Source: Brevundimonas sp.
GTDB taxonomy: Bacteria; Pseudomonadota; Alphaproteobacteria; Caulobacterales; Caulobacteraceae
Direction of reading: 5' to 3'
Length of the DNA: 64,000 nt
Assembly (NCBI RefSeq): GCF_041648055.1
Contig: NZ_JBAZPS010000008.1
Span: 28,742-92,741, forward strand
Part shown: in pieces, positions 37,872 through 63,908 of the stretch
Layout of the letters: each line of letters begins with the position of its first letter
Numbering within the stretch: position 1 is the first letter of the stretch
Made by a program: the position numbers and the translations under genes
The notes under the pieces: generated by a model
Database searches by the model: none
The model's input: only the letters and a program-made list of their open reading frames with translations
What the model was told of the DNA's origin: nothing

Positions 37872-37889
37872 GATGCCAGCCGAGCGTGA

Positions 37890-38813: not shown

Positions 38814-39165
38814 CGCGATGACTCTAGCGAGAAATTCGCGTTCTGCCGGATATATTTTGGCCGACCGGCACAGATACCCACGAAGCTAGGCTGGAGGCCG
38901 CACAACCGTTAGTCTCACTCCGAGAGCGGCGGTCACGCCGGTGGGATCATCGCTGAAAACCACCCTAGAACCTGCCCCTCGCGCCACAGAGGCCGTCGCC
39001 AGGGAGCCGCGCATTCTTCGAGTCTTCGCCCACCTCGCCAACCTCACCCAAGGACTGGCCGCACTTCGAAAGCCGTCGCTCCAGCGGATCACGACACGGC
39101 TCCACCGCGAGCATCTCCGGCGGAACGTCGCGTCCGCCGGGCTGCGGCATGGATCGGGCCGTCGC

Positions 39166-42100
39166 ATGCTCGCGTTCGTCCGTCGACACTGGCGGGTGTC
39201 GCTCCTTGTGGCGATCGCCCTCTACGGCGTTGTCGGCACGATCACCGCCCTTGTGCCGCCCACCGATTACGGACCGCAAATACCGGGCGATCTGGCCGAC
39301 TATTTCCGCGATCTCCAGACCATCAACCTGGCCCTGCTGGGCGCGCAGGCGACCTTGCTGGGCCTGGTCTATCCCCTGGTGATCGCCTTGGTCGGAATGC
39401 TGTTTGAGACGCGGTCCTCGACCGGCCACCGGCTTCAGATCTATTTCTCCGAGACCGAGGCGGCTTCCGTAGGCGGCCTGGCGCTGACCTACATCGCCTT
39501 CGTGGCCCTGCAGTCGCTCCTCTACGCCCAGCTCGAGCTCAAGGTCGTCGGCGCGATCACCGTGCTCAACGTGATCTGGTTCGCCATCAATCTCCTGGGC
39601 CTGGCCTTCTTTGTTCTGAGAAGCCTGGATTTCATCCAGCCGACCCGCCGCGTTCGACTGACGCGGAGCTACATCGCCAACATCGCCTGGCGCGATCAGT
39701 TGCGCGGCCTGATGCTCGCGAACCGCTGGGTGAACGCCGCGAGGTACAAATATCTGCCCGAGGACGCGGCCGAGTCCGAGTTCACCATCACGCCTTTCAT
39801 CAGCGACGCCGACCTCGTCGCCCGCGAATTCTCCAGCCCACGCCGGCTGCGTGACATCCGCTTCGGCGTACTGTCCGTGGCCCTCAAAGCCAGAACGAAG
39901 CGCGCTTCGGCCGAGGACAAGGAAATCCGCACGACGTTAGCGGGATGGCCCGGTCAGGACTACGCCAGCCGCGCGGTCCTGGTTCGAGGCGTGGGTGAAG
40001 CGAGCTGGTCCGAACGCCGGCTATTCCTCGCCGCCTTCCGGTTCGGTCCCGTCTCACACGCGGACCCAATCCCGACGACCGAGGGCCTTCTGGCGGAGGG
40101 CGCCGCCGATCTCGTCTCGCTGTTCGATGCTGGTCGGCTCGATGATTTCAAGGCGCGCCTGAGGGAACTGCTCGAACAGCACGCGCTCTACTATCAGCTG
40201 GCGCAAACGCCCCAGAACCCCGGCGACCCACCCTTCAACTACGGCGCCATGGACGCCGGTTTCCAATCGCTCGCGATGGAATGGGTGCGCGCCTACATCC
40301 CCTTGCTGGACCGTCTTGCGGAACGGCTGAGCAGCGACCCCAAGTTTCTGGAGAGCGCGGCCTCGCTTGCCGCCCGGCTTCAGCACCGTGTTGGGAGCGC
40401 TCCGCACGAAGCGACCCGCGCATTGTTCTTCCCGACCATGTATCTGGTGCGCGGCCTGCTCCTCACCGCGACGCGCAGTCGAACCCTGTCGCCAGGGACG
40501 ACGCCCGAGCCGACCTTCGCGTTCTCGGGTCCGAAGGCGGACGCCTATACCCGCGCCTGGCAAGATGTTGTCGGGGGCTGGGAGACCTTCGCCGAAGCTC
40601 TCGCTCCGCTCGGGACCAGCAAGCCGGCGCCAGGATGGCCCCAGATCCGGGCCCTGGCGCCGGGTTTGGCGCGACATCTGCGCGACACGGCGATGATGGT
40701 CGCCGTGGCGGCTCAATCCGGCGAGACCATCGCCATCCGCTGGACCATCGATCTCATGCTCAAATGGGACGAGCGCAATCGGCGGATCTGGCCGACGTCA
40801 AGCCAGGGTTGGGCCGTCGGGCGCGCACTGCCTACTCTGGAGCTGACGTCCCGGGAATGGGAGGCCGTGCCCGCCTCTCTCTACCGTCACGACGATCGCC
40901 CCGCAGAACCGATCGATGTCTTCGACGCGGCGATCGAGAACGCCTGGCGAGACACCCTTCTGGTGCTCGTCTGCAGCCTGATCGGACGCTCCGTTTCTCC
41001 CGCTCCCGGCGTGGTGAATGACGGCGCGGCCATGGCCGCCTGCGCCCTGTTCCAGAATCGGGAGTTCGACGCCGGCGCCTCCTATCACCCGCGTTCCGCC
41101 CCGCTGGTCACGGAGGAAATCCTGCGCTCGATCCTCCGCCTCGTCGGCGAGTCCGGTCGTGACGACGCAGCCTACGGGCGGTCCATCGAGGAGCTCGCCG
41201 AGCAAATCAGCCGCCTGGAGGGGCCGAACTACATCTCCGGTCGGGTCTATGGGTGGTCGGGAGAGGCGTCTCTCTGGGGTCAGAACACGACCCATGGCCT
41301 GCTGATCGCCGCCAGCCTGAATACACTGCCCGCCGGAAGAACGGGCAAGATCGGCGTGTCGGGCACGATCAGAACCCTTCTTCTGCCAGCCTCCGATGAA
41401 GCGCGACGAGCGATCATCCGGCATCTGGAGGGAATCCGCGATGCATTGCCCGGGATCGATCGTGTCCACGGAGCGGGGATAGCGTCCGCACTGACCGCAT
41501 CCGTGATCGATGTGCCCGAGCTCGAGACACGTCTGGACCGGGTGCGGGAGTGGTTGGAGGAATGCCTTTCGCTCATCCACGTCGCGCGTGAGCAGGTCCT
41601 GTTGTCCGCTCCAGTCGACACCGCCGCGCTGAGGGCGATTTCCGACGCCGCCCAAACCAAGGGCTTCTCCAAGGCAGAAGGGGCCTTCCCGGTATCGGCC
41701 TTCGCCGTGATCGATCAATCCTCCGACGCTCTGAAGCCTAGGGTCTATCGCCAGACGCACGTCCGCCGAGGAAGCTACGTCTTGCCCCCGATGGACGACC
41801 GGATGGGCAGCGAGGGAGAGTGGTGGGCGCACGAACTCGTGGGTCGCGTGGGCGAGATCGTGCTTCTCGATGTGCTCGAGGCCTCCACCCCGTCGCGACG
41901 ATCCCCGCGCAGCGCAGCGACCTATTGGAAGGCTCTGTCCGAAGCGCTCGAGGCCGTGCGCGCGACCGGGCAATCACCCGTGGTGATCCGGCCTCATCGG
42001 CAGGACCCTAAATGTCTCTGGGACTGGACCCACGGCAGCGGCGATCGCCCATCGGACTTCGCCTTCGTGCGCCAGCCGAATGAAGACGACAGCTACGACT

Positions 42101-42345
42101 TCCATCTCAACGGTACGCCCGTCTACTCGTCGAGAGCCGCGAACGGAGCCACATGGGTGTTCGGCGTGGAGCGGCTGGATCGGCTGACGTTCCAATCCTT
42201 CGGCGAAGAGGGTCTGACGAAACTGACGCTGGAGCCGGATGCGGCGAATCCGTGGTCGGCCTCCCTGCGTCTTGAGTGGGCACGCAGGGTCCGCCTGTCC
42301 GACGGCCCGGCGTTCCGCATCTCGCACCCCAAGCCATCGTCGTGA
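39166..42345 (+). CDS. large membrane-anchored protein (about 1059 aa; four predicted N-terminal TM helices) of unknown function
   Basis: Start uncertain (ATG 39166; track GTG 38941); hydrophobic segments SLLVAIALYGVVGTITALV, LALLGAQATLLGLVYPLVIALVGML, VGGLALTYIAFVALQSLLY, ITVLNVIWFAINLLGLAFFVL; no catalytic motif recognised. Confidence 0.7.
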   Translation: MLAFVRRHWRVSLLVAIALYGVVGTITALVPPTDYGPQIPGDLADYFRDLQTINLALLGAQATLLGLVYPLVIALVGMLFETRSSTGHRLQIYFSETEAASVGGLALTYIAFVALQSLLYAQLELKVVGAITVLNVIWFAINLLGLAFFVLRSLDFIQPTRRVRLTRSYIANIAWRDQLRGLMLANRWVNAARYKYLPEDAAESEFTITPFISDADLVAREFSSPRRLRDIRFGVLSVALKARTKRASAEDKEIRTTLAGWPGQDYASRAVLVRGVGEASWSERRLFLAAFRFGPVSHADPIPTTEGLLAEGAADLVSLFDAGRLDDFKARLRELLEQHALYYQLAQTPQNPGDPPFNYGAMDAGFQSLAMEWVRAYIPLLDRLAERLSSDPKFLESAASLAARLQHRVGSAPHEATRALFFPTMYLVRGLLLTATRSRTLSPGTTPEPTFAFSGPKADAYTRAWQDVVGGWETFAEALAPLGTSKPAPGWPQIRALAPGLARHLRDTAMMVAVAAQSGETIAIRWTIDLMLKWDERNRRIWPTSSQGWAVGRALPTLELTSREWEAVPASLYRHDDRPAEPIDVFDAAIENAWRDTLLVLVCSLIGRSVSPAPGVVNDGAAMAACALFQNREFDAGASYHPRSAPLVTEEILRSILRLVGESGRDDAAYGRSIEELAEQISRLEGPNYISGRVYGWSGEASLWGQNTTHGLLIAASLNTLPAGRTGKIGVSGTIRTLLLPASDEARRAIIRHLEGIRDALPGIDRVHGAGIASALTASVIDVPELETRLDRVREWLEECLSLIHVAREQVLLSAPVDTAALRAISDAAQTKGFSKAEGAFPVSAFAVIDQSSDALKPRVYRQTHVRRGSYVLPPMDDRMGSEGEWWAHELVGRVGEIVLLDVLEASTPSRRSPRSAATYWKALSEALEAVRATGQSPVVIRPHRQDPKCLWDWTHGSGDRPSDFAFVRQPNEDDSYDFHLNGTPVYSSRAANGATWVFGVERLDRLTFQSFGEEGLTKLTLEPDAANPWSASLRLEWARRVRLSDGPAFRISHPKPSS

Positions 42346-51936: not shown

Positions 51937-52710
51937 TCAGTCCCGGGCGTGGGGCAAGGGGTTGAAGGACGGAGCGGCCGGCGTGGCGGTCCCCCGTTCC
52001 CAGAAGCGGCGGCGCGCCTCGATCGCGGCTTCGCGGTCGGCGGCCTGACGCGCCGCGCCCTCGGCCATCAGCCGGGACTGGGCCAGAAGCACGGTCCGCA
52101 TGCTGGCCAGATCCTCGGCCAGAACGGACAGCATCTGGGTCGAGGACTGGATCGCGGCCGTCTCGCCCTCCGCCGCCTCGCTCGCGGCCATGGCCCCGCG
52201 CAGGCGGCCGTCGCGGCTCTGGGCCAGTCGCTCCAGCTCGGCCGCCGTGCGCGCCAGGTCCTCGGCGGTCCGGCGCGCGGTCGTGGACCGATCGGCGCCG
52301 AGGGCCGTGAGGTCCGAGAGGGAGAGATCGTCCGGATACAGATCCGCGAACTGCCGCTGAACGCCATCGAGGGTCGAGGCCGTCCCCCGGACCGTGCGCG
52401 CCAGCTCGCCGATGTCGCGCAGGGTCTCAGACGATCCCGCGAGATGGCTGTAGGGCGAAGCGGCGAGGCTGCGGGCCTGATTGGCCAGAGTGCGAGCCTC
52501 ATTGGCGAGGCTCTCGATCTGCCTGGCGGCCGAGAGCATCGCCTCGACATCGGCCTTGGCGTCATACACCGCCCATTGCGCGCTCGCCGGCTGGGGCGCC
52601 GCCGCAAGGGTCAGCGAAAGCGCTGCAAGCCCGCAGAGCCAGCGTCGGCTATTCGGCCGCGAGACGATGGGCGACGGCCGGATCGAAGCTGTCGAAGACG
52701 TTGTCGACAT
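51937..52710 (-). CDS. trbJ: P-type conjugative transfer protein TrbJ (VirB5-like)
   Basis: Signal peptide then coiled-coil AQWAVYDAKADVEAMLSAARQIESLANEARTLANQARSL; start overlaps the trbE 3' end by 62 nt, exact start uncertain. Confidence 0.8.
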   Translation of the reverse strand: MSTTSSTASIRPSPIVSRPNSRRWLCGLAALSLTLAAAPQPASAQWAVYDAKADVEAMLSAARQIESLANEARTLANQARSLAASPYSHLAGSSETLRDIGELARTVRGTASTLDGVQRQFADLYPDDLSLSDLTALGADRSTTARRTAEDLARTAAELERLAQSRDGRLRGAMAASEAAEGETAAIQSSTQMLSVLAEDLASMRTVLLAQSRLMAEGAARQAADREAAIEARRRFWERGTATPAAPSFNPLPHARD

Positions 52711-55102
52711 GATGGACTCCCTTGGCTTTGAGGAATTCGCGGGCGAAGCGGTCAGGCCGCGGATCGGCCGGATCGAGAGCCGCCAGCACGCTCTCGATGA
52801 GAGTCTGGTCCTCGGGAGACGAGGCGCCGCAGAGGGCGAGCCCGGCTCCGCTGAGCTTGAGGTCGAAAAGCCGCCGCCCTTCGGGCTGACGCAGGTAGTA
52901 GGTGCGCTTGGGGGTGGCCCAGGCGATCAGCTCCAGCTGGCGGCGGTTGAGACCGAACATCCGGTAGAGGTCCGCCGAGGCCGGCTCGAGCGCGCGGGGG
53001 TTGGGCAGGAAGATCTGGGTCGGGCAGCTTTCGATCAGGGCCGAGGCGATCGACGAGCGCACGACGTCGTCGAGCGACTGGGTGGCGAAGACCACCGCCA
53101 CGCCCTTCTTGCGGAGCGTCTTCAGCCACTCGCGGATACGGGCGGCGAACGCCGTCTCGCCGAGGAACAGCCAGGCCTCGTCGAGGATCAACAGGGTCGG
53201 CCGGCCGTCGAAGCCGCGCTCGATCTCGTGGAACAGCGCCGCGAGTACAGGCGCGACCGCCGACGGGGTCGCCATCAGGCTCTCGAGCTCGAAGCATTCG
53301 AAGGCGGCGAGCGTCTCGTCTTCCGGAGCGACGCCGTCGATCAGGGCGCCATGAGGCCCCTTGAGCGTCAGGGGCTCGAGAGCCGCGGCCACGGCCTTGT
53401 CCTGGACCAGGGCCGTGAAGACGGTCAGCGTCCGCTGCGCCACGGGGGCCTGGGCCAGGGCGCCGAGCGCGGCCCAGATCTCCTCGCGAATGCGCGGCGT
53501 CGGCTCGAGGCCCGCGAGCCGGACGGCATCCGCCAGCCACTCCGAGGCCCAGGCCCGTTCGCCGTCATCCTCGATGCGCGCCAGGGGCTGGAGGGTGAAC
53601 GCGCCGCCGGGCTGGAGCGGATGCCAGCGCCCGCCGACCGCCAGGGCCGCGGCCCGCGCGCTGCGGCCCTTGTCGAAAACCACGACCCGCCCCTCGGGAT
53701 AGCGGAACCATTGAAGGGCGAGGAAGGCGAGCAGCGCGCTCTTGCCCGAGCCGGTCGGCCCAACGACCATCGCATGGCCGACGTCGCCCACATGCAGGGC
53801 CAGCCGGAACGGCGTCGATCCACTGGTCCTCGCGACCGCGAGCGGCGGCCCCTGCAGGCGCGGGTCCGATGTCGGTCCGGCCCAGACCGCCGAGACCGGC
53901 AGGAGGTCGGCGAGGTTCAGGGTGGAGACCAGAGGCCGACGCACATCCGCATAGGGCTCGCCCGGCAGGGAGCCCAGCCAGGCCTCCACGGCGTTCAGGT
54001 CCTCGGTGCGGGCGACGAAACCCTGGGCGTTGAGCGTCGCCTCGATCGCCCGGGCCTGTTCCGCCGCCCGTTCGGGATCGCGCGCCATCACCGTGATCGT
54101 CGTGGTCAGATAGCCGTAGGCGCAGGCGTCCGAGCCGAGGGCTTCGAGCGCGCCGTCGCACTCGTCGGTCTTGGCCGCCGCATCCGTATCGAGGAGCGGG
54201 ACCTCCTCCTTGGTGATGGCCTCGCGCAGGAGAACCCCGACCCCCTTGCGCTTGGCGAACCAGCGCTTGCGCAACTTGACGAGCTCCACCTCGGCGTCCG
54301 CCTTGTCCAGACCGATCCAGCGCGCGCTCCAGCGATAGGGGAAGGGCAAGGCCCCGAGGGCGTCGAGCAGTCCCGGCCGCGTGCTCGCCGGAAGCCCCCG
54401 CACCGAGACCACCTTGAGCGTCTGGCCGTCCAGTGTCGGAGACACGCCGCCGAGCAGGGGCGCGTCCGCCAGCCAGGCGTCGAGGAACATCGGCGTCGCG
54501 GGCAGCGCGAGCCGGACCGACCTCGGAGACACGCAGTCGTGCAGCCAGGTCAGGATCTCCACGTCGTCGAGCATCGCGACTTCCGGAAGGGCGTCGGCCA
54601 GAAGGTCGACGATCTGCGCGGTCTCGCGGGCGAAGGCGTCCAGGGCGGTGCGCCAGTCCCGGCTCGCCGGATCTGCGCCGTCGAACAGGACGCGCTCCAC
54701 CCGGCGGGTCTGGTCCGCCGGCGGAAGCCAGGTCAGGGCCGCCCGATAGTCGGTCTCGTAGGCCGGCTCGCTGGTCTCGAAGAGGGAGCGGCGCTCGGCG
54801 TCGACCAGCCAGGCCGCGGCGATCTCGAACTCACTCGTGGGATAGGGCTGGGCGGGGCGGCGACGGGCCTCGACATGGAGGCACCATCCGCTGCCCAGAC
54901 GCTTCAGGGCGTTGTTGAGCCGCGCTCGAACCGACATCAGCTCCAGGTCGGAGGCTGACTCCAGATCCGGCCCCCGGAACCGCAGGCCGCAGGTGAAGGA
55001 GCCGTCCTTGTTCAGCACCACCCCGGGAGCGACCATGGCCGCCCAGGGCAGATGATCGGCCAGAAGCGCGGGCCGGCGGCGATGTTCATCCAGAAAGCGC
55101 AT
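52649..55102 (-). CDS. trbE: conjugal transfer ATPase TrbE (VirB4 family)
   Basis: 817 aa; MRFLDEHRRRPALLADHLPW N-terminus, Walker A GPTGSGKS, Walker B LLILDEAW. Confidence 0.95.
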   Translation of the reverse strand: MRFLDEHRRRPALLADHLPWAAMVAPGVVLNKDGSFTCGLRFRGPDLESASDLELMSVRARLNNALKRLGSGWCLHVEARRRPAQPYPTSEFEIAAAWLVDAERRSLFETSEPAYETDYRAALTWLPPADQTRRVERVLFDGADPASRDWRTALDAFARETAQIVDLLADALPEVAMLDDVEILTWLHDCVSPRSVRLALPATPMFLDAWLADAPLLGGVSPTLDGQTLKVVSVRGLPASTRPGLLDALGALPFPYRWSARWIGLDKADAEVELVKLRKRWFAKRKGVGVLLREAITKEEVPLLDTDAAAKTDECDGALEALGSDACAYGYLTTTITVMARDPERAAEQARAIEATLNAQGFVARTEDLNAVEAWLGSLPGEPYADVRRPLVSTLNLADLLPVSAVWAGPTSDPRLQGPPLAVARTSGSTPFRLALHVGDVGHAMVVGPTGSGKSALLAFLALQWFRYPEGRVVVFDKGRSARAAALAVGGRWHPLQPGGAFTLQPLARIEDDGERAWASEWLADAVRLAGLEPTPRIREEIWAALGALAQAPVAQRTLTVFTALVQDKAVAAALEPLTLKGPHGALIDGVAPEDETLAAFECFELESLMATPSAVAPVLAALFHEIERGFDGRPTLLILDEAWLFLGETAFAARIREWLKTLRKKGVAVVFATQSLDDVVRSSIASALIESCPTQIFLPNPRALEPASADLYRMFGLNRRQLELIAWATPKRTYYLRQPEGRRLFDLKLSGAGLALCGASSPEDQTLIESVLAALDPADPRPDRFAREFLKAKGVHHVDNVFDSFDPAVAHRLAAE

Positions 55103-55111
55103 GCTCAGGTC

Positions 55112-55390
55112 TCACGCATCGAGATGGCCCGGCAGGGCCAGATGGCGGCGAAGGACGTCGAAGAACCGCTTGTCAGCCCGTGCGGCGTAGAGTCCGATCG
55201 CGTGGGCGACCGCCCACCACAGGAGGCCCAGCCACCAGATCCGCAGCGCCAGCCCCAACACAACCGCCACGGTGCCCATCAGGATGGCGTAGTCGCGAGG
55301 CATCCCCGCCAGGGTGACCGGCTCGGTCAGGGCTGCCGCGACCGGAAGATCCCAGCCTGGCGGGCGGTGATCGGACGACGTCTCGGACAT
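55112..55390 (-). CDS. trbD: conjugal transfer protein TrbD (VirB3 family)
   Basis: Start ATG 55390 (92 aa), two TM helices; ATGA overlap with the trbC stop. Confidence 0.85.
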   Translation of the reverse strand: MSETSSDHRPPGWDLPVAAALTEPVTLAGMPRDYAILMGTVAVVLGLALRIWWLGLLWWAVAHAIGLYAARADKRFFDVLRRHLALPGHLDA

Positions 55391-55710
55391 CAGGCGATCT
55401 CCGCCCCGCCGGCGAAGCCGAAGAACTGCAGGAAGAAGGTCGAGGCGGCGAAGGCGATCGAGAGGCCGAAGAGTATCCCGAGCCCTCGCCGCATGGACGA
55501 TCCGTTCTCGCTCATGGCGACCCCGGCGCCGAACAACACCACCGCCACGACGGCGGCGGCCTGGACGACCGGCCCGGTGATCGATTCCACGATCTGCTGG
55601 AGCGGTCCCTCCCAGGGCATCCCGGATCCGCCCGCCAGGGCCTGTCCGGCAAAGAACAGGCCGCAAGTCACCGTCGCGGCCGAAAGGCCACGTTGAAGTA
55701 AACGTCGCAT
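55390..55710 (-). CDS. trbC: TrbC/VirB2-family pilin precursor
   Basis: Start ATG 55710 (106 aa); signal-like N-terminus, two hydrophobic helices. Confidence 0.85.
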   Translation of the reverse strand: MRRLLQRGLSAATVTCGLFFAGQALAGGSGMPWEGPLQQIVESITGPVVQAAAVVAVVLFGAGVAMSENGSSMRRGLGILFGLSIAFAASTFFLQFFGFAGGAEIA

Positions 55711-55743
55711 GGTTTGAGTTCCTGTGGTCGGGCCGGAAGGTCG

Positions 55744-55790
55744 GCGTTGACGATCCACAGCAAGCAAAACCATCCACAGCCTGTCAACGC
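55744..55790 (-). promoter_or_regulatory. inverted repeat GCGTTGAC/GTCAACGC enclosing two direct ATCCACAGC repeats, 34-80 nt upstream of trbC
   Basis: Read directly; the minus-strand arm contains TTGACA; lies at the junction between the inserted cargo and trbC. Confidence 0.4.
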
Positions 55791-56223
55791 GGCCTGTGAA
55801 TATATTTTTACGGCGGAGTCTTGCTTCTAGATCGCCCTCGAAATCCAGCGACCGTTCATCAAAGTCTTGCAACGGCGCAAGTCGTCCGCGACTTTCTTCG
55901 ATTCACCCGGAGGGCCCGTCATCATTGACTTCAGACCTCAATGCGTCCGGATTTCGCCGGAATGCGCGACAGGGCGCCGACGAGAGAATCGGATCGACGC
56001 CAGGCCTCCCGAAAGCGCGAAGCGCATGACGTCAGAAGCTTGTCGGACCGCCGAATATTGTCGGGCGTGGCCTGCGACGGATCAGCATGGGACCGGCGGA
56101 TGCCGGCGGCCCCTTAAACAGGGGCCCGCCAAGACGTCCGCGACCGCCTGGAAGACGGCGGACACGCGGTCGAGGCGGTCGTCCATCGATGTCGACGATC
56201 GCGCCGACAGTCTCTGAGCCGAG

Positions 56224-58065
56224 TCAGGCGGTCTCGCGCAGGAAGTCGTCCTCGTCCTCGACCTGCGCCTCCTCCCCCTGTCGGTTGGGACGGAACTGAC
56301 GCCCCATGCTTCGACGGGCGCTCTGGATGGAGTCGTAGAAATCGTCGGCCGCCAGGCTCAGGCTTTCCGGCGCGAGGGCGTGACGCACGGCGTCGGGATC
56401 CCATTCCTTGTTGAGCTGCTTGGCCAGGGCGAACACCACCGCCCGACCGACGCGCAGGACCATGCTCTTCTCCGCCTGTCTAACGGCGGCTTCACGCATG
56501 GTGTCGAGGTCGGCGACGGTCGCATAGGAGGCCTCGAGCGCATCCTTCATCTCGCCGATCGACGGATAGAGCATGTTGAGAAACAGCTGGCCGTTCTCAT
56601 AATACCGACCGGCCCGCCCCTTCAGCTGCTTCTCCTCGATCTCCTCGGCTGTCCTCAGCAGGACGATCTCGGGCGCGCGTTCGCGGTCTTTCCAGAGATC
56701 GGCCGCCTTCGACCCCTGCGGGGCAAGGTTCAGATCGATATGCTTTGTCTTCGGCCTGGAGGCCCCGCCGGCTCCGCCCTCGCCGTCACGCTGGGGTTGG
56801 GCGCCCACGCCGCTCGCTGTATCGACCAGACGGATTCCCGTGGTCGTCGGCCTCGGGGAGACCCGGCGAACCCGCAGGTCGTCGAGCAGCTTCTGAAGTT
56901 CGTCACGGATGTCGTCGCTGGAGGTGCTCTCCGGCGCGAACGACCGAATGACGTCGATGAGCCACTGGGGGCGATGCTGGGCGACGAGGTCGCCGAAATG
57001 GGCGGCTTGAACGGTGTCCTGCTCACCAGCCTGGTATCGCAGGAACTGACGGTAGGCCTCCGGCAGCACGTCTGCGTCGTCCGGCAGTTCGATATGGACA
57101 GAGATGTGCTTCGATCCGAAGGGGATGCCGAACAGGGGGGCGTTGATGGACCAGCCGCGCCCGGTTTTCACATCATAAAGCTCGTCGCGATAGACGACGC
57201 CGGCGAGACTCAGGGCCGACTGGATGGCGCCGCTGATCGAGCGGTTATGGCTCGGCGACTTCTCATAGGGCGGGTCGTAGAAATAGTGAATCTTCACGCC
57301 GCCCGGCGCCTCGACCGTCTCGGTCCGCTCAAAGGCTCCGGCGGCGGCGCGTCGCGGCAGGGGCTCGAAAGCCCGGGTCCCGTCTCCGAGCTTGTGCGTT
57401 CCAGCCAGCAGGGTCACGCGCACGCCTTCAGGCAGGCGGTAGAACCGGTGATACAAGTAGGTGGCCAGCCACTGCGCATCGACCACCGGATCGCCGTTGT
57501 AAGGCGCACGGGCGGTCTCCTGATCCGCCTCGTTCCCCAGCAGGCGAACTTCCGTCCAGTCCTCCGTCAGGTCGTATCCTTCCTCGGCGGCCAGCTCGGT
57601 CACATCGATGACCTCGACGAGGTCGCCGTTCTCCAGCGTTCGCCGAAGACGCCCGTACCGCCCGTCGCGCTCGCAGAGGATCACCTCATTGACCGCGCCG
57701 GATTTGCAGGAGCGATAGACCATCCCCAGTCGGTTGGACGGCAGGGACGCCACCTTCGCGCCCATCCCGAAGTTCGCGTCCAGGCCCTTCTGCTTGCGGA
57801 TGGACGAGGCTAGATCGCACATCCGGTAGAGCTCGGCGGCGTCCATCCCCGGTCCGGTGTTCCAGATCGCAAGCTTGGGCGTGTCGTTGAACGTCACAGT
57901 GCGGAAGATGACCTGACGACTGCCTTCGGGCGCGAGGGACGCGGCCTCCATTGCGTTCTTGGCCAACTCCCGCACCATCATGGTGCGCGGGCAACGCTCG
58001 ATGGTGGTCGAGACGAGGAAATCGACATCGTCGATAAGGATCGGGGTGATGCTGGACTGGGTCAT
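56224..58065 (-). CDS. GHKL (HATPase_c_3-like) ATPase, 613 aa, cargo inside the trb operon
   Basis: MVRELAKNAMEA (N box), IWNTGPGMD (G1), NFGMGAKVAS (G2); remainder unrecognised. Confidence 0.75.
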   Translation of the reverse strand: MTQSSITPILIDDVDFLVSTTIERCPRTMMVRELAKNAMEAASLAPEGSRQVIFRTVTFNDTPKLAIWNTGPGMDAAELYRMCDLASSIRKQKGLDANFGMGAKVASLPSNRLGMVYRSCKSGAVNEVILCERDGRYGRLRRTLENGDLVEVIDVTELAAEEGYDLTEDWTEVRLLGNEADQETARAPYNGDPVVDAQWLATYLYHRFYRLPEGVRVTLLAGTHKLGDGTRAFEPLPRRAAAGAFERTETVEAPGGVKIHYFYDPPYEKSPSHNRSISGAIQSALSLAGVVYRDELYDVKTGRGWSINAPLFGIPFGSKHISVHIELPDDADVLPEAYRQFLRYQAGEQDTVQAAHFGDLVAQHRPQWLIDVIRSFAPESTSSDDIRDELQKLLDDLRVRRVSPRPTTTGIRLVDTASGVGAQPQRDGEGGAGGASRPKTKHIDLNLAPQGSKAADLWKDRERAPEIVLLRTAEEIEEKQLKGRAGRYYENGQLFLNMLYPSIGEMKDALEASYATVADLDTMREAAVRQAEKSMVLRVGRAVVFALAKQLNKEWDPDAVRHALAPESLSLAADDFYDSIQSARRSMGRQFRPNRQGEEAQVEDEDDFLRETA

Positions 58066-58071
58066 GGCGGC

Positions 58072-58290
58072 CTACAGCTTGAAGCCGGACTTGCGGGTCC
58101 GGGGAGCCTCGAAGCGGGCCTCGACCTCCGCGACGGCGTCACGCAGCGCCCGCATGATCTTCTTCACCTCCACGTCCTCGTACTCATAGACCTGCCGGTT
58201 CGACAGGTTGCCGATCCGGGCGATCGCATCGAGCGCCTTGGTGGTGCGACCTTCCGCCAGTTCACGGAATTTTTCGCGTTTCTGAGTCAC
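58072..58290 (-). CDS. small helical protein (72 aa) preceding the GHKL ATPase
   Basis: GTG 58290 with AAGGA 9 nt upstream; the alternative GTG 58344 would force the palindrome to be coding (RIRRKYRRIRS). Confidence 0.5.
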   Translation of the reverse strand: MTQKREKFRELAEGRTTKALDAIARIGNLSNRQVYEYEDVEVKKIMRALRDAVAEVEARFEAPRTRKSGFKL

Positions 58291-58309
58291 GAATGAGCAT
58301 CCTTGTGAT

Positions 58310-58338
58310 CGTATTCGTCGATATTTTCGTCGAATACG
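58310..58338. promoter_or_regulatory. 29-bp near-perfect palindrome CGTATTCGTCGATATTTTCGTCGAATACG (operator-like)
   Basis: 12 of 14 arm positions pair; located 20-48 nt upstream of the proposed start of the small gene in an A/T-rich spacer. Confidence 0.5.
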
Positions 58339-58425
58339 AACCACACATCCGCACGATTTGCAATCACGCGGATATTTCAGGCCTATGGGGGAGCTGCCTC
58401 TCAGCTCCAGCGCGCGGTACCCTCG

Positions 58426-59346
58426 TCAGCTTTCAAGGGGCAGCAGGTCATCGACGACCCGGCCCGTCCGGGTCCGGCGGATGTGGACGATGATGTCGAT
58501 GGACTGGGTGATCATACGGTGCGGGATCGCTGGCCCGACCTCGGCGATCAGATCCTCGATCCGGGACACAGCCTCGCGGGCGGAATTCGCGTGGATCGTC
58601 GAAAGGCCGCCCGGATGCCCGGTGTTCCAGGCCTTGAGGGTTTCGAGCGCCGCCGACCCTTCGCGCATTTCTCCAACGACGATCCGATCAGGTCGCATGC
58701 GCAAAGCGTCACGGACCAGGTCGACGACCCCGATCGGCACAGGGTGGCGGCGTGTGAGGGTGGCGACGAGATCCCACGCGGAACATTGAAGTTCGGGCGT
58801 ATCTTCAATCAGGAAGACACGGTCGTTCGCAAACGCCGGCTCTGCGAGCAGCGCATTGGCCAGCGTCGTCTTCCCCGAACCCGTACCGCCCGAGATCAGC
58901 AGATTCCGGCGATCCCGCACCGCGGCGCGCAGGACCTCGGCCTGCCCCTCCGTCACCACGCCGTCACGGACATAGTCATCCAGGGTCCAGATCACGGCGG
59001 GTCGTTTCCGGATCGAAAAGGCAGGCGCGGCGGTTACCGGCGGGAGAAACCCCTGGAACCGCTCCCCGGTGACCGGAAGTACCCCTGCCAGACGTGGATT
59101 CTCCCGGGTGACCGGATCCCCGACATAGTCCGCGATCAACCGGATGACCCGTTCCCGGGCTTCTGACTCCAACTCGTGGCCGGTATCGGCGCGCCCGGTC
59201 CCGACGCGATCCAGGACCAGGCGCCCATCCGGGTTGACGAGGACTTCGACCACAAGCGGATCGGTGAGCGCCTCCAGGATGTCGGGCCCCAGCGCGTGGC
59301 GAAGCGCCTCCAGCTTCCGTTCGCCGACGATAGGATGGACGCTCAT
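58426..59346 (-). CDS. trbB: P-type conjugative transfer ATPase TrbB (VirB11 family)
   Basis: 306 aa; Walker A SGGTGSGKTT; IVVGEMR; His-box region. Confidence 0.93.
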   Translation of the reverse strand: MSVHPIVGERKLEALRHALGPDILEALTDPLVVEVLVNPDGRLVLDRVGTGRADTGHELESEARERVIRLIADYVGDPVTRENPRLAGVLPVTGERFQGFLPPVTAAPAFSIRKRPAVIWTLDDYVRDGVVTEGQAEVLRAAVRDRRNLLISGGTGSGKTTLANALLAEPAFANDRVFLIEDTPELQCSAWDLVATLTRRHPVPIGVVDLVRDALRMRPDRIVVGEMREGSAALETLKAWNTGHPGGLSTIHANSAREAVSRIEDLIAEVGPAIPHRMITQSIDIIVHIRRTRTGRVVDDLLPLES

Positions 59347-59756
59347 TCGGCCGTCCCGCGCTGCGGCCTGCCGCCCGAGATCAACCGGGCGGCCGTGTCA
59401 TCGAGAAGCTGTTCGATCCGGCGGTCCACTGCGGCGCGGGCGACAGGATCCTGATCCGTGACGGCGTCCGGCAAACGCATGAAGAAGGCGCGGGCGACCT
59501 CGATGACCAGCTCCTGGATGATTTGCACGTCTCGCGCCGTCGACCGCATGTGGTCTCTTAGCGCGCGGTCGAGCTGAAGCAGACGGTCGTCCGGATCGGC
59601 GGGGAGGCTTCTGGCCAGGCCCTTCGCAAGCGAGCGTCCGGCGGCCTGGCTGATCGGAATATTGGCCGAGCGCGCTTCCCGCTGCAGGGCGGCGACCACG
59701 CGGGGGTCGGTGAGATAGACCTGAACCCGCGTCGCCCCGGTCTCACGCCCGCCCAT
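59343..59756 (-). CDS. CopG/ribbon-helix-helix-like protein between traG and trbB
   Basis: Start ATG 59756 (MGGRETGATRVQVYLTDPRVVAALQREA); the upstream part of the track ORF lies inside traG. Confidence 0.6.
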   Translation of the reverse strand: MGGRETGATRVQVYLTDPRVVAALQREARSANIPISQAAGRSLAKGLARSLPADPDDRLLQLDRALRDHMRSTARDVQIIQELVIEVARAFFMRLPDAVTDQDPVARAAVDRRIEQLLDDTAARLISGGRPQRGTAE

Positions 59757-61644
59757 CCCCGCCTCCCTGCAACCCGTCAAGCACCGCCTGTTCCGCCGCG
59801 AAGGCGGTCGAAATCCGCTCGTAGGTCTCGGCCGCCCTGGCGGCGACGCGTCGGTCATGGATCGCCGCCTCCACCTCTTTGAACAGCGGCAGGGCCGCCT
59901 CCGGATCCTCGCCCAGCCCCCGTCGTCCCGCCCATGGGTGAACCGGTGCGCCAGGCGTGTCGACGCCAGCCGCCTGATCCGGCGGCGGCAGGTCCGCGCG
60001 CGTCCGGAAGGGCCGCTCCCTGTCGTAGAGGACCTTGCGTGTCCGCAGCGGTCTGTGCCCTGCCGCAAAGGTCAGCTGCACCTCGTCCGGCAGCGCCCGG
60101 ACTTCGCCCGGCTCCAGCAGGGGCCGTTCGATCTCGGAGCGGGACACCGAGCTCCGGCCGGCGCCCAGCCCCGCCGGACCGCTGCGGCTGGTCTTCCGCT
60201 CCAGCACGGTGCCGGTGAGCTTGGACACCTTGTCCTGTGTTAGCGGATCGAGAGCGCTGAAGGCGGTGTAGACATGGCAGTTGTCGAGGATGGTGTTGTT
60301 GGCCCCATAGGTCTCGACGATGTCGTTCAGGGACTGGGCGACGAACATTGTCTTGATGCCGTAGCCGCTCATCAGGCGCAGGGACTTCTCGAAGAAGGCC
60401 AGTCGGCCCAGCAGCGGGAACTCGTCCATGAGCATCAAAAGGCGCCGGCGCTTCTCGCGGCCCGCGTCGTCGGCGTGCTCTGCGGCGGTCAGGGCCTGGG
60501 CCGCCGCGTAGAAGAGAAGCCGGATCACCGGTCGCAAGGCGACGGCGTCGGCCGGAGCGACCTGCACATAGAGGGAGACCGGCGCCTCGGCGCACATCAG
60601 ATCGCCGAGCGCGAAATCCGATGCCGACATCGCCCGAACCAGATCGTCGCCGGCCAGCCATTTGAGATAGCTGCGCGCCGTGCCCTGCACCGAGGTGCGA
60701 AAGCGGTCGTGCATCGCCGCGTAGCCCTTCACCGCCGTGGAGATGAACGGATGGACCTCGGGGACGCCCTCGGGACCCAGACGATGAAGGGTCCGGACCA
60801 TGACGTCGGCGGCGGCGTCCAGATCGGCGAGGATCGTTCTCACCGTCAACAACGTCTTGTCCGCGTCCGGCGCCGTGTAGAGGACGTGCAGGATCACGGC
60901 TTCGAGAATCTCGGACGCCGCCTTGTCCCAGATGGCCTCGTCGTCCCGTGCGCCTCCCGGATCGCTGAGGATGGCGACCAGCCGCTGGACCTGCGCCAGT
61001 TCCTGGGGCCCCGGTCTGATCTCCGCCAGAGGATTGAAGCGCGCGGACGCCGGGTCTCGCGGGTTGAAGTAGAGCGCATGACTGTGCTGGGCGCGCCAAC
61101 CGGCGGTCACCCGCCACAGCTCCCCCTTGGGATCATGGACCAGGACGCTGTCGGTCCAGCTCAACAGGGTGGGGACGACATGGCCCCGTCCCTTCCCCGC
61201 GCGGGTCCCGCCCGTCACGAGCGTCGGGCGCAGGTCGGTCGTCGCCAGAAGACGGCCCTGCAACCGCCCGAGGACGCACCCCGCGTCGTGCCTCAGGCCC
61301 GCACGGCGAGCCTCCGCCAGGCCGCCCCACCCGCGCGTTCGCTTCACGGCGCCGCCGTCGAACAGAAGCAGGCCCCCGGCGCCCGCGGCCATCACGAGCA
61401 TGAAGACCGAGAGCGGCAGGGCGAAGGCGTCCCCCTCCGCCGCCCCGAACCTCTGGCGCCAGACGAGGATCATCCAGGGCCAGTAGACGCCTGTCTCGTC
61501 CAGCCGGAGCGCCGGCCCCAGCGTCACATGATAGCGATAAAGCCAGGCGAAGGTCTGGGTGGACGCCTGAAGCGCGACTAGTAGTGCGGCGACAAGACCG
61601 GCGAGGCGTGCTGGCGGCATGACGACCATCCGTTCGAAGACCAT
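59743..61644 (-). CDS. traG: type IV secretion coupling protein TraG (VirD4 family)
   Basis: 633 aa; two N-terminal TM helices; TGGTRAGKGRGHVVPTLL Walker A; LLMLMDEFP Walker B. Confidence 0.92.
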   Translation of the reverse strand: MVFERMVVMPPARLAGLVAALLVALQASTQTFAWLYRYHVTLGPALRLDETGVYWPWMILVWRQRFGAAEGDAFALPLSVFMLVMAAGAGGLLLFDGGAVKRTRGWGGLAEARRAGLRHDAGCVLGRLQGRLLATTDLRPTLVTGGTRAGKGRGHVVPTLLSWTDSVLVHDPKGELWRVTAGWRAQHSHALYFNPRDPASARFNPLAEIRPGPQELAQVQRLVAILSDPGGARDDEAIWDKAASEILEAVILHVLYTAPDADKTLLTVRTILADLDAAADVMVRTLHRLGPEGVPEVHPFISTAVKGYAAMHDRFRTSVQGTARSYLKWLAGDDLVRAMSASDFALGDLMCAEAPVSLYVQVAPADAVALRPVIRLLFYAAAQALTAAEHADDAGREKRRRLLMLMDEFPLLGRLAFFEKSLRLMSGYGIKTMFVAQSLNDIVETYGANNTILDNCHVYTAFSALDPLTQDKVSKLTGTVLERKTSRSGPAGLGAGRSSVSRSEIERPLLEPGEVRALPDEVQLTFAAGHRPLRTRKVLYDRERPFRTRADLPPPDQAAGVDTPGAPVHPWAGRRGLGEDPEAALPLFKEVEAAIHDRRVAARAAETYERISTAFAAEQAVLDGLQGGGDGRA

Positions 61645-61813: not shown

Positions 61814-62218
61814 TCAGTTGCCGCCTTCGCGCACCCCGGCGGCCCTCAGGAGGTCGCCGACACGACGACCGTCGAGCCGGCAGGTCGCGATCACCCGATC
61901 ATAGACGATCACCCGGCCGCTACGTCCTCGCGTCGCCACGCATTCGAGGCGTCGGCCCATCACCAGACGGCGCAACTGGTCCCGGGCGGCGCGTCCGCCC
62001 GGTGCGTTGAGCTCCGGGGCATTGAAGTCCGCGAGCCTCACCTCGATCCAGGTGGAGGGGTTCGTGCTGTCGCCGACGCAGAGCCCGTCGCCATCGCCGA
62101 CATAGCGGGTTTGCCCCGAGAAAACCTGTCCGGCGCGATCTGGCAGTCGCCCCTCGCACGGATCGGCATGGGCGATCGCGGGCGCGGCGAGGAGCGGGAG
62201 GATGAGCCACCATTTCAT
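61814..62218 (-). CDS. secreted thermonuclease (SNase)-family protein
   Basis: Start ATG 62218 gives signal peptide MKWWLILPLLAAPAIAHA; VRLADFNAPE ... typical SNase-like core. Confidence 0.7.
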   Translation of the reverse strand: MKWWLILPLLAAPAIAHADPCEGRLPDRAGQVFSGQTRYVGDGDGLCVGDSTNPSTWIEVRLADFNAPELNAPGGRAARDQLRRLVMGRRLECVATRGRSGRVIVYDRVIATCRLDGRRVGDLLRAAGVREGGN

Positions 62219-62286
62219 CGGATCAACCTGGGCCGATCCGGTCGGATCGAAAAGCGCGATCGGGAAGAAAGGAAGGGCGGCCGGGA

Positions 62287-63000
62287 ATGCTCCGCTTGGG
62301 AGCCTTGCTGGAGACCGCCATGCGCCCGCTTCCTGACCTCGAACCCGCGATCGCCGCGGCTGGGCGTTCGCCCGACACGAGTTCCCTCGCCAACCTCGAC
62401 GACCGCGCCCTCCTCGCGCTTCTGCTGGGCCGCAGCATGCGACAGACATCAATGCCCGCCGTGGACGCCCTGTTCGACCGGTTCGGCGACATCGCCGCCA
62501 TTGCTTCCGCCGATGTGCCGGAACTGGCGCGCGCCAGCGGACTGGGACCAGCGGCTCTCACCGACCTGAAACTGCTTCGTGTGCTCAGCGAACGGCTGGT
62601 CCGCGCCGAGGCTTCGAGACGGCCCGTCATCACCAGCTGGACGGCCTTGCTCGCCTATGTTCGGGTCGCATTGGCCGAGGAACCCCGCGAGCAGTTCCGG
62701 GCCCTGTTCCTCGACAAGCGCAACCGGCTCCTGAGCGACGAACTGGTCGCCCAGGGCACGATCGACCATGCCCCCGTCTATCCGCGCGAGGTCGTGCGGC
62801 GGGCGCTGGAGGGGTCGGCCGCGTCCATCATCCTCGTGCACAATCACCCTTCGGGCGATCCCGAGCCGTCCCGCGCCGACATCGAGATGACGCGGAAGAT
62901 CGTCGACGCCGCCAAGGTCTTCGACATCCAGGTTCACGATCATCTGGTCGTCGGGAGGGACGGTACGGCCAGCCTGCGCACCCTCGGGCACTTCCGGTGA
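62287..63000 (+). CDS. radC: RadC-family JAB-domain protein
   Basis: 237 aa; ILVHNHPSGDPEPSRADIEMT JAMM motif. Confidence 0.9.
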   Translation: MLRLGALLETAMRPLPDLEPAIAAAGRSPDTSSLANLDDRALLALLLGRSMRQTSMPAVDALFDRFGDIAAIASADVPELARASGLGPAALTDLKLLRVLSERLVRAEASRRPVITSWTALLAYVRVALAEEPREQFRALFLDKRNRLLSDELVAQGTIDHAPVYPREVVRRALEGSAASIILVHNHPSGDPEPSRADIEMTRKIVDAAKVFDIQVHDHLVVGRDGTASLRTLGHFR

Positions 63001-63908
63001 GCCTGCGCCAGATCGTGGCGATCCTCGGCGGAGACCTCTACCAGAACGGCTTGCGCGCCAATGTGCCGGCGCCCGGCCATGGGAAGGCGGACCGTTCCGT
63101 CTCGCTCCTGCTCGATGGCGGCCGTGTCGTCATCCACACCTTCGGCGCGGCCGATTGGCGGGAGGTGCGCGACGACCTGCGGCGTCGCGGACTGGTCGAT
63201 CACGGCGGTCGGCTCATGGGTGTCGCGGACACGCCGGACAGGCCCGTGATCGACCACCCCCGACGGCGGGCGGTCGCGGGTGCGCTCTGGCAGGATGGGG
63301 TAAGGCCCGCCCGGACCGGCGTGGTCGCACGTCACCTCGCCGTGCGCGGCGTCGCTTGGCGGGAAGACCTCGACGACCTGCTCGAACATCCCCGCGCGCC
63401 CCTCTCGGTCTACCGGCCGGGGCGGCGCGTCGGACGCGCGATGATGACCGGGATCCGGTCGCCCTCGGGGGATCTCACGGCCGTCGAGCTCACCTATCTC
63501 GCGACCAACGGGCAGGTCGCATCGGGTCTGAGCGTTCCCCGCAAGACCGTGGGCCAAGTCCCGCCGGGATCGGCCGTACGGCTGCGTCCCGCGGCGGCGC
63601 GGATGCTGGTGGCCGAAGGCGTCGTCACCACCCTGTCCGCCATGGTCCGCTTCGACCTGCCGGGCTGGGCGCTCATGTCAGCCGGAAACCTCTCGCGGTG
63701 GCATGCACCCCACCATGTTTCGACGGTTCTAATCGCCGGAGACCGGGGCGAAGCCGGGGAGATCGCCGCGATGCGGCTGGCCAGGCGGCTCGAGCGCGAT
63801 GGCGTGGAAGCGATCGTCGCCTTTCCCCCAGCCCCGTTCGGCGACTGGAACGAGGCCGCTCGAGACCATCAGAAAGCGGGAAAGGAAGGGCGCGGACGGG
63901 CGCCGTAA
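62997..63908 (+). CDS. toprim-domain protein (ICE-associated, DUF7146-like)
   Basis: 303 aa; C-terminal MLVAEGVVT ... VLIAGDRGEAG ... toprim-like E and DxD motifs; overlaps radC stop. Confidence 0.55.
   Translation: MSLRQIVAILGGDLYQNGLRANVPAPGHGKADRSVSLLLDGGRVVIHTFGAADWREVRDDLRRRGLVDHGGRLMGVADTPDRPVIDHPRRRAVAGALWQDGVRPARTGVVARHLAVRGVAWREDLDDLLEHPRAPLSVYRPGRRVGRAMMTGIRSPSGDLTAVELTYLATNGQVASGLSVPRKTVGQVPPGSAVRLRPAAARMLVAEGVVTTLSAMVRFDLPGWALMSAGNLSRWHAPHHVSTVLIAGDRGEAGEIAAMRLARRLERDGVEAIVAFPPAPFGDWNEAARDHQKAGKEGRGRAP

Follow-up and report, generated by a model that had tools for sequence, protein, structure and literature searches.

Restriction-type conflict systems of prokaryotes include the MORC and paraMORC proteins, which are GHKL-S5 ATPases (Iyer, Abhiman & Aravind 2008, PMC2292703), and in one of these proteins, the paraMORC3 protein VcSduA of type I-D Shedu, a GHKL ATPase with a clamp-like middle domain is the regulatory head of an anti-phage protein (PMC12137116). 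Another described arrangement pairs CapK, an anti-sigma-factor-type kinase, with the STAS-domain protein CapS, the two lying upstream of immune operons (PMC13373217). Defence systems are also carried on integrated mobile elements (PMC10201445); in integrative and conjugative elements (ICEs) of the Tn4371 type, a variable region lies between the relaxase gene and traR/traG, and the genes trbBCDEJLFGI are reported to be contiguous in all elements (PMC2789088). The subject of this report is a pair of adjacent genes, for a 72-aa protein and a 613-aa GHL-type ATPase, that lies between trbB and trbC of an ICE in a 64-kb stretch of Brevundimonas sp. DNA (contig NZ_JBAZPS010000008.1, positions 28,742 to 92,741), which was analysed as a whole and is called the window below. 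The two genes form an autonomous cassette that spreads laterally and brings a control region of its own, and here they have been inserted into a slot of the mating-pair-formation (Mpf) operon in which cargo recurs. The closest described kind is prokaryotic MORC/paraMORC, and within that group the closest is the GHKL-headed Shedu protein VcSduA. As to function, the most likely reading, to which we give an about even chance, is that the pair, in a Tn4371/ICEMlSym-type element, is an uncharacterised conflict module of defence type.

The P-type transfer region occupies 50-62 kb of the window, as judged from the open reading frame (ORF) map and from Pfam and NCBIfam matches, and all of the trb genes and interval genes named here are on the minus strand. 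The gene traG (59743-61644) lies upstream of trbB (58426-59346), which encodes the 306-aa P-type conjugative ATPase (TIGR02782, 353 bits vs a cutoff of 304.55) and forms the left flank of the insert, while trbC (55390-55710), encoding the pilin precursor (PF04956 at 7.8e-18), forms its right flank. A small gene ahead of trbB overlaps the trbB start by 4 nt, and past trbC the order is trbD, trbE (52649-55102), trbJ, trbL, trbF and, further on, trbI. An earlier note on this DNA had described the operon as chained by 4-nt overlaps; it is indeed tightly packed, although trbD and trbE are separated by 9 nt and trbJ and trbL by 11 nt. The same note had placed a 72-aa and a 613-aa gene, in the orientation of the operon, within a separation of about 2.7 kb, and the ORF map bears this out, the 2.7-kb interval consisting of the small gene (58072-58290), the large gene (56224-58065) and 512 bp of non-coding DNA. 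The small ORF has a GTG start with AAGGA 9 nt upstream, and its homologues begin at the same residue; the large ORF starts 6 nt past the stop codon of the small one. Both are real genes and not chance ORFs, given the large numbers of relatives that each of them has. For the large protein, 836 relatives (E<=1e-3) were found among the 8000 candidates scored, the 120 listed having 57-100% identity, and there are also matches to 1067 clusters at the 50% level, 207 of these at E<=1e-30. A profile of the small protein found at least 6229 relatives among the 8000 candidates scored, all unnamed and none with a Pfam domain.

That the pair moves as a unit emerges from its distribution. A scan for the large gene through 185,579 species genomes, one genome per species, yielded 172 loci, and the best 80 were examined with 10-kb flanks, their trb context being tested by tblastn with TraG, TrbB, TrbC, TrbD, TrbE, TrbJ and TrbL of the window. 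Among these 80, the gene sits between trbB and trbC only in L001 and L002, two contigs of Caulobacterales metagenome-assembled genomes (MAGs) with 93-96% DNA identity to the window, which therefore represent the same element. At another locus, L030, a distant trbB and traG lie at 6.5 kb, and the remaining 77 have no trb genes within reach. The small gene is directly upstream of the large gene in 43 of the 80 loci; it is present in 43 of the roughly 52 loci of the clade with at least 48% identity and in none of the approximately 28 of an Acetobacteraceae-type clade (41-46%). All-against-all clustering of the ORFs from the 80 loci revealed no conserved third gene beside the pair in the main clade. 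The closest copy outside the element is on the chromosome of Brevundimonas diminuta (L007), where 86% DNA identity runs from window position 58365 to 56223, that is, from 75 bp ahead of the small gene to the stop codon of the large gene, and these limits define a cassette unit of about 2.14 kb. Protein identity to this copy is 93-94%, above the DNA identity, as expected under purifying selection. At 78-93% identity, the cassette recurs in unrelated contexts in Brevundimonas, Mesorhizobium and Agrobacterium. No homologue was found among 50,697 phage records.

The place into which the cassette has gone is equally informative. A metagenome scan with TrbB gave 80 loci, and the pair is absent from all of them; the 17 closest relatives have a TrbB 68-84% and a TrbC 63-95% identical to those of the window, and 13 of these have a readable trbB-trbC junction, the distance being taken between the ends of the tblastn alignments. 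Five (L103, L105, L106, L107 and L112) have an empty junction of 296-329 bp, and two more (L110 and L113) a gap of 455-477 bp. In the others, the junction holds an XRE-family regulator (L108, 815 bp), a MazE-type antitoxin (L109, 1268 bp), a 116-aa membrane ORF (L098, 1400 bp), an IS481 transposase with a pentapeptide-repeat protein (L102, 2771 bp), small ORFs (L104, 2882 bp) or, in a gap of >7 kb in L101, a complete Azaca system (PADLOC matches to ZacA at 1.7e-88, ZacB at 1.3e-113 and ZacC at 5.6e-281). The TrbB of L101 is 75% identical to that of the window, and Azaca, at 8229-14379 of that locus, comes directly after trbB. On Caulobacter and Phenylobacterium plasmids with a TrbB about 60% identical, HipA/XRE genes directly follow trbB, and on the Caulobacter plasmid these are followed by an AAA ATPase with a restriction endonuclease and then AbiEii. 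More distant relatives (TrbB 51-58%) have trbB-trbC gaps of 42-205 bp, and a Rhizorhabdus plasmid has trbB, 145 bp and then trbC. The trbB-trbC junction is thus a cargo hotspot of this ICE lineage. It resembles the defence and toxin-antitoxin hotspots of other conjugative elements, in which unrelated adaptive or defence genes swap in one slot of a conserved backbone; however, unlike the hotspot of the Tn4371 family, this one falls within the Mpf operon, with trbB and trbC on its two sides. Neither this slot nor the gene pair is described in the published literature searched.

These comparisons also settle the standing of the pair within the operon. The earlier note had started from the premise that trbB is normally followed directly by trbC; in this ICE clade the empty state is instead a spacer of about 250-330 bp with a promoter-like element. 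Its proposal that the block is a later insertion nevertheless stands, as the pair occurs in none of the 80 related trbB loci, including the 13 close relatives with readable junctions. The outcome that it had named as refuting this, namely that related elements universally carry the pair as a Trb component, was checked, and the result favours insertion: in neither presence nor position is the pair conserved as a core Trb component would be, since it is missing from the 80 trbB loci and from the plasmid trb regions examined. The note's guesses at function fared unevenly. Defence remains one possible role, but the mostly non-conjugative surroundings of the pair make entry exclusion, DNA processing and a Trb accessory role unlikely. 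A conjugation accessory, acting in entry exclusion, DNA processing or pilus regulation, or else an anti-defence factor that serves the ICE in a new host, would fit the location of the cassette inside the Mpf operon in the same orientation, the lack of a strong terminator between trbB and the cassette in the scan made, and one distant homologue, on a Dinoroseobacter plasmid, that immediately follows a pair of relaxase and coupling-protein genes. It is, however, the account least compatible with the distribution: besides the absence of the pair from the related trbB loci, nearly all of the best 80 homologous loci are without trb genes nearby, phage records hold no homologue, and the cassette appears to bring its own promoter region. 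We give it a very slight chance.

How the cassette reached the slot may be read from its edges. On the left side, DNA homology to the relatives stops at 58451-58478, within the last codons of trbB; the C-terminus of the window TrbB is 11-12 residues shorter than those of eight relatives, with the conserved motifs all intact, and its last ~50 residues are unusually divergent. It looks as if the end of the gene was replaced at the junction that insertion or recombination formed. On the right side, homology to the closest relative, L098, resumes at 55808, which marks the right boundary of the insert and leaves 55711-55808 as the native region upstream of trbC. From the homology boundaries on both sides, the inserted DNA spans roughly 58445 to 55809, and it is made up of a junction of ~60-80 bp, the 2.14-kb cassette and ~414 bp of non-coding DNA. 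Sliding identity to L098 outlines a divergent tract, 55200-59700, centred on the insert: identity is 92-96% over traG and over trbE-trbL, 73-82% over the copG-like gene and trbB, and 86-87% in trbC and trbD, with none over the insert. Neither a recombinase nor a transposase is found in the insert, nor is a flanking repeat. Homologous recombination that used the conserved trb flanks probably brought the cassette in, since such an exchange would leave a divergent tract centred on the slot.

An element upstream of trbC may explain why cargo is tolerated here. In 11 of 12 close relatives, whatever the size of the gap, this element is kept as an A/T-rich stretch, TTGACA, CTGTGGAT and TTTGCTTGC; the TTGACA of the window lies at 55782-55787 and is followed by two CTGTGGAT repeats at 55750-55780. 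Its conservation and its TTGACA box suggest that the element acts as a promoter, and cargo placed upstream of such an internal trbC promoter would be tolerated. In the relatives L102-L113 with an empty or small gap, several GACTTG / AAGTC boxes stand upstream of TTGACA, 60-140 nt ahead of trbC, and might serve a Trb regulator as operators. The window has insert DNA in place of the stretch that would hold these boxes.

The non-coding DNA that came with the insert (55809-56223, ~414 bp) has homology only within the element, including the MAG copies L001 and L002. There is no conserved ORF in the 512 bp at 55711-56222, and a scan of the interval against Rfam at E<=1 was empty. The 414-bp spacer folds slightly better than shuffled sequence (z -2.5), and a G+C-rich hairpin ~100 nt past the stop codon of the GHKL gene is unconserved even in L001 and L002. 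The spacer (55809-56222) was also considered as a remnant of the trbB 3' end and rejected as such, Smith-Waterman scores against 12 relatives and against the window's own trbB being at shuffle level (z <=2.3); a 14-nt repeat, CATCCGCCGGNCCC, found in both the spacer and trbB is at chance level. A pattern scan for terminators past trbB or past the GHKL gene found three vs 1.6 expected, a background level, and none of them was in the intergenic spacers.

The earlier note had labelled the 613-aa protein a GHKL ATPase, quoting the motifs ELAKNAMEA, NTGPGMD and FGMGAKVA. All three are present, and motifs and predicted fold uphold the label, although the Pfam HATPase_c model falls short of its cutoff (E 0.0044, 17.9 bits vs 26.4). 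In an AlphaFold model built from a 75-sequence alignment (mean pLDDT 78.7), residues ~1-398 form a Bergerat ATP-binding domain with an S5-like transducer, 399-460 a disordered linker and 461-593 a C-terminal domain. Foldseek against the PDB returned MORC3, SMCHD1, MutL, ParE/GyrB and Hsp90 at E 2e-10 to 1e-8, with a probability of 1.00 to many GHKL structures. The matches include MORC3 (6o1e, E 2e-10), SMCHD1, MutL LN40 (TMt 0.55), MORC2 and MORC4 (0.54); further ones are to the 43K fragments of ParE and GyrB and to Hsp90, in alignments of ~395-440 columns. A transducer module of the GHL/MORC type is present in the model, the domain arrangement being approximate at a root-mean-square deviation of 7-10 A. 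By its predicted structure, then, the large protein is a GHL ATPase of the MORC/SMCHD1/MutL/GyrB type.

The active site combines conserved and altered features. Motif I reads RELAKNAMEA, with the catalytic E33 and the Mg-binding N37 invariant in the 75 aligned sequences, and motif III reads NFGMGAKV, with G100 and G102 equally invariant. Motif II keeps its glycines, N69 and G71 being invariant in the same alignment, but the Asp of DxGxG that contacts adenine in characterised GHKL enzymes is replaced: the sequence is WNTGPGM, with Asn69 in its place, a register fixed by alignment of hidden Markov models to the IQDTGIGM of TRAP1. Asn stands at this position in 75/75 aligned sequences and in 215 of 217 family members, those whose motif could be placed, at identities down to ~26-30%. 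In yeast Hsp90, the matching Asp-to-Asn change (D79N) abolishes ATP binding.

The C-terminal domain, modelled alone, is predicted with greater confidence (pLDDT 89.2) as a small sheet of three strands and, after it, a long bundle of helices. Its fold has no match in the PDB (best E 0.84, TM <0.3) or among the viral models of BFVD (best E 0.25). A nuclease and a known dimerisation domain were considered for it and set aside, there being no PDB or BFVD match and no recognisable nuclease motif. The simplest guess, by analogy with MutL, Hsp90 and the MORCs, is that it provides constitutive dimerisation. Some relatives of the large protein are longer, at 730-1394 aa, and end in long arrays of tetratricopeptide repeats (TPRs; 200-800 aa of repeats), and a separate TPR protein follows the gene in at least five loci of Acetobacteraceae, as it does on a plasmid of Acidisoma. 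In the Acetobacteraceae loci L183 (6989-11059), L055, L068, L070, L073 and L079, a GHKL homologue without the small partner is followed by a ~750-aa TPR protein. At L178 (7256-7924) and L179 (7146-7928), the small gene is replaced by a gene for an MT-A70 adenine methyltransferase in one and a RhuM-family protein in the other.

Set beside the systems with which this report opened, the pair shows a mixture of likeness and difference. Like MORC and paraMORC proteins, the large protein has an N-terminal GHKL domain followed, as modelled, by an S5-type transducer, with MORC3, SMCHD1 and MutL as its best structural matches, and the family is sporadic and laterally mobile, some copies adjoining HNH, methylase or restriction genes. 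Unlike them, it has no conserved helicase, methylase or nuclease partner, the partner being instead a 72-aa protein that is unmentioned in PMC2292703; motif II carries Asn for Asp, whereas paraMORCs are described with intact motifs; and HATPase_c_3 is below threshold in the window protein. Membership of the MORC family proper is not indicated, as the window protein has no PF13589 (HATPase_c_3) match at E<=0.01 and weak matches to it appear only in some homologues. With paraMORC1, compared through its published description, the architecture is compatible, and HNH neighbours occur in some loci. VcSduA shares the GHKL head with a clamp-like module and the carriage on mobile islands, but it ends in a DUF4263 nuclease of the PD-(D/E)xK type, whereas the window protein's C-terminal domain has no Pfam or structural match; moreover, VcSduA is a single gene with no small partner, and the window has two genes. 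What sets the window family apart from paraMORC and VcSduA is therefore the Asn pocket, a new-fold C-terminal domain in place of a nuclease, the small partner and the TPR variants. Among defence models, PADLOC-DB v2.0 has no component match, the large protein reaching only DpdH at E 0.026, and neither NCBIfam nor PHROGs has a match to the large protein above threshold.

The small protein is predicted to be helical and basic, and it is strikingly conserved, with the pattern K-F-R-x-L-A-E-x-R-T-N-K-A-[LI]-E-A-I-x-R-I-G-N-L-S-N-R-Q-x-Y ... V-E-A-R-F ... G-x-F-K-L, the last at the C-terminus. Sequence and profile searches found no match for it in PDB sequences, Pfam, NCBIfam, PADLOC or PHROGs. The relatives of the small protein are spread more widely than those of the large one. 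On Priestia, Arthrobacter and Deinococcus plasmids, of the phyla Bacillota, Actinomycetota and Deinococcota (L185:4992-8745, L187:4989-8734 and L186:4974-8783), a small gene with 40-46% identity is the first of four in a conserved operon, where it is followed by genes for a ~629-aa GHKL-like protein (motifs REIPQNTVDA and SFGIGKAA), a ~285-aa protein and a DUF6339 protein. Between the 629-aa GHKL-like proteins and the large protein of the window, hhalign detects no homology (probability <1%). Because the small partner is clearly shared while the large proteins show no detectable homology, the small protein is a partner common to two GHKL-like families. The four-gene operon adjoins Dcm-Vsr-restriction genes, a Shedu nuclease and a MutH/Sau3AI endonuclease, and DUF6339 is not mentioned in the literature searched; this operon has the look of a separate candidate defence system, so far undescribed. 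In a Caulobacterales MAG (L010:3492-4214), a GHKL-like gene of the Priestia/Arthrobacter type is directly downstream of the pair (tblastn E 5.6e-9).

The earlier note had credited the block with its own A/T-rich control region. Such a region exists and travels with the cassette, although the 512-bp spacer is not its place; it occupies 58291-58365, upstream of the small gene, and its outer limit is the point, 58365, at which DNA homology to the B. diminuta copy (86%) begins. It contains an inverted repeat of 13 nt (58309-58321 / 58327-58339), which lies 18 nt ahead of the small gene. Across 40 homologous loci, the 150 nt ahead of the small gene have a median GC of 0.44 vs 0.61 for the locus and contain repeated (A/C)ATATT boxes around TTGAC. 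A/T-rich upstream regions with such boxes, or with the inverted repeat, indicate that the cassette carries its own control region.

An operator-like repeat ahead of a small gene, itself 6 nt upstream of a large gene to which it is tightly linked across loci, is the layout of a type II toxin-antitoxin module. In an addiction module of this kind, the GHKL protein would arrest growth, and the small protein would counteract it and shut down the promoter from which it is itself expressed; the gain for the ICE would be its stabilisation after transfer, as opposed to protection from phages. The inverted repeat or the ATATT boxes at the cassette promoter, the sporadic single-copy distribution over chromosomes and mobile elements, and the MazE-like and HipA/XRE genes in the trbB-trbC slot of sister elements all agree with this. 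On the other hand, a protein of 613 aa with intact catalytic Glu and Asn and a transducer is unlike the known type II toxins; the ~28 Acetobacteraceae-type loci and nine main-clade loci lack the small gene while the large one shows no clear sign of decay; and conservation is higher in the small protein (55-70%) than in the large (49-60%), the reverse of what is usual for antitoxins. We consider addiction unlikely, though with a real share of the probability, and it overlaps with abortive-infection defence, from which it is not cleanly separable.

The same arrangement could be that of a regulatory sensor pair, in which the GHKL protein would be a kinase or switch acting on a small DNA-binding protein to control the downstream genes, here trbC-trbI. 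GHKL kinase and substrate pairs ahead of immune operons are documented (PMC13373217), and like CapK-CapS, the pair combines a GHKL-superfamily protein with a small partner. In several loci, it is directly upstream, on the same strand, of AAA_21/DUF4238 genes or of Gabija-like operons, and in the window it is upstream of trbC. Several observations speak against control of this sort. The predicted fold is that of a GHL ATPase with an S5-like transducer and not the compact anti-sigma-kinase type, the small protein matches neither STAS nor any other known DNA-binding domain, the next gene is convergent in 14 of 25 loci, and trbC keeps its own promoter-like element in relatives without the pair. 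A regulatory role thus has a slight chance. Identity with CapK-CapS itself is ruled out by the GHL fold with its transducer and by the small helical protein, which is unrelated to CapS and has no STAS or other Pfam domain.

The genes that accompany the family elsewhere give a further view of what the pair might do. On Agrobacterium and Dinoroseobacter plasmids, the small gene is followed by a 37%-identical large gene, and an ATP-binding protein with a UvrD-type helicase, a Gabija-like layout as annotated, comes next, directly in Agrobacterium and past one hypothetical gene in Dinoroseobacter; RES-Xre genes, a caspase-family protein and a restriction endonuclease are near these plasmid copies. 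McrB, McrC, HNH and DpnII/MboI genes are found beside a VapE-type primase in L086, and in L088 a relaxase is upstream and AAA_21 and DUF4238 genes are downstream. A convergent HNH_2 gene is kept in three Mesorhizobium loci, one copy is on an ICE with TraG, HipA, DUF4268, ParB, SSB and ArdC, and another is beside a PIN toxin-antitoxin pair. In a census of two genes on each side of the pair at 25 non-redundant loci (100 ORFs), the recurrent Pfam domains were AAA_15 and AAA_21 (four each), DUF2813 (three), DEAD/ResIII (three) and UvrD (two), with no others, and the recurrent PADLOC models were PtuA, AriA, GajA and Old (three to four ORFs). A separate panel of 30 mobile-element and defence proteins, run by tblastn against the 80 loci, matched in only 13 of them, a result that says little because so narrow a panel was used.

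The reading of the pair as a conflict module of the defence type rests on the company of the slot, in which sister elements hold Azaca or toxin-antitoxin genes, together with the mobility of the cassette, the modelled fold and conserved active-site residues of the large protein, the defence-type genes near other copies and the variants of the family. Several points weigh against it. The census suggests an association of the family with defence islands, but its counts are raw, with no enrichment statistic against a genome-wide background, and the remaining census genes are diverse and mostly metabolic. Neither protein of the pair has a recognisable effector domain (nuclease, TIR, protease or pore), which holds our confidence near one half, and neither has an above-threshold model in PADLOC, Pfam, NCBIfam or PHROGs. 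ATPase activity is itself not to be assumed, because of the Asn in the adenine-contact position of nearly all members. Lastly, many copies are between ordinary housekeeping genes, and the Acetobacteraceae homologue has a conserved position beside a ~610-aa upstream ORF that looks like a housekeeping neighbour of the adenine-deaminase type; both would suit an ordinary cellular function of the MutL or Hsp90 kind, in DNA repair, chromosome organisation or chaperoning, with the ICE copy as incidental cargo. We assign that explanation a small probability in view of the patchy occurrence of the family (the 172 loci of the genome scan), of the recurrence of the cassette at high identity in the unrelated contexts given above, and of the copies on plasmids and ICEs and beside restriction and Gabija-like genes.

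The cassette sits in a permissive slot between the 3' end of trbB and the conserved promoter-like element upstream of trbC. If the pair is a defence-type module, it might work as follows. The large protein would be a nucleotide-driven dimeric clamp like those of MORC and MutL, as its modelled fold suggests, with an N-terminal gate that closes on nucleotide binding, and the new-fold C-terminal domain would keep the two subunits joined or touch the target. By analogy with MORC, MutL, SMCHD1 and the type II topoisomerases, the clamp would probably work on DNA. The small basic partner might gate the ATPase, tether it or repress the promoter of the cassette, and relatives would replace or extend this partner logic with arrays of TPR sensors, the TPR variants presumably sensing proteins.

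In plants and animals, MORC and SMCHD1 silence transposons and viruses. A bolder and more tentative proposal, possible but in our judgement less likely than not, joins these strands: the pair might be the founding example of an undescribed, widespread immune system (at least 1000 clusters at the 50% level, mostly in Alphaproteobacteria) in which a MORC-like clamp with an Asn pocket and a new-fold C-terminal domain, controlled by a small adaptor that is common to a second GHKL family across phyla, would act with no recognisable nuclease, for instance through entrapment or silencing of invading DNA, as a counterpart of eukaryotic silencing by MORC and SMCHD1, and an alphaproteobacterial ICE lineage would have, in its trbB-trbC junction, a slot dedicated to defence cargo. 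Were the pair a defence system, bacterial immunity would gain a system built on a MORC-type ATPase and lacking a visible nuclease, and a clamp-based bacterial system, if true, would make the mechanistic origin of MORC and SMCHD1 testable in a simple host. The Asn-for-Asp pocket found across the family poses a biochemical question, namely which nucleotide, if any, is used. The small partner points to a reusable adaptor that is named in no database. That an essential conjugation operon can host a cargo slot matters for the annotation of ICEs and for the mining of new systems.

Other parts of the window deserve brief mention. Beyond traG, at 61814-63908, are genes for RadC (JAB domain) and for a Toprim/DUF7146 protein, which are also beside the L001 and L002 copies. 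The stretch at 33747-42345 includes a 1374-aa ORF, which has an N-terminal helix-turn-helix and a weak match to PD-Lambda-4_A (2.4e-7) and otherwise almost no annotation, and a 1134-aa ORF with no match and a hydrophobic N-terminal region; between the two is a HEPN and nucleotidyltransferase gene (37890-38813). These genes are probably further cargo of the same element. From 1 to 32 kb, the window is ordinary chromosome, with genes for cytochrome bd, a cbb3-type oxidase, a P-type ATPase and a TonB receptor with FecR and an extracytoplasmic function (ECF) sigma factor. The earlier note had counted the large protein as the second GHKL ATPase of the window, and there is indeed another, a 752-aa ORF on the minus strand (13188-15446) with the canonical motifs ELISNAID at residue 69 and DNGCGL at residue 117, but it is not homologous to the 613-aa protein. 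None of this ORF and the 617-, 265- and 280-aa ORFs upstream of it has a Pfam match at E<=1e-3 (0/4), and neither of the two tested has a PADLOC match. The three upstream ORFs are on the same strand and closely spaced within 13188-18973, and the four together, which lie outside the part of the window that belongs to the ICE, may be another GHKL operon, uncharacterised and unrelated to the first.

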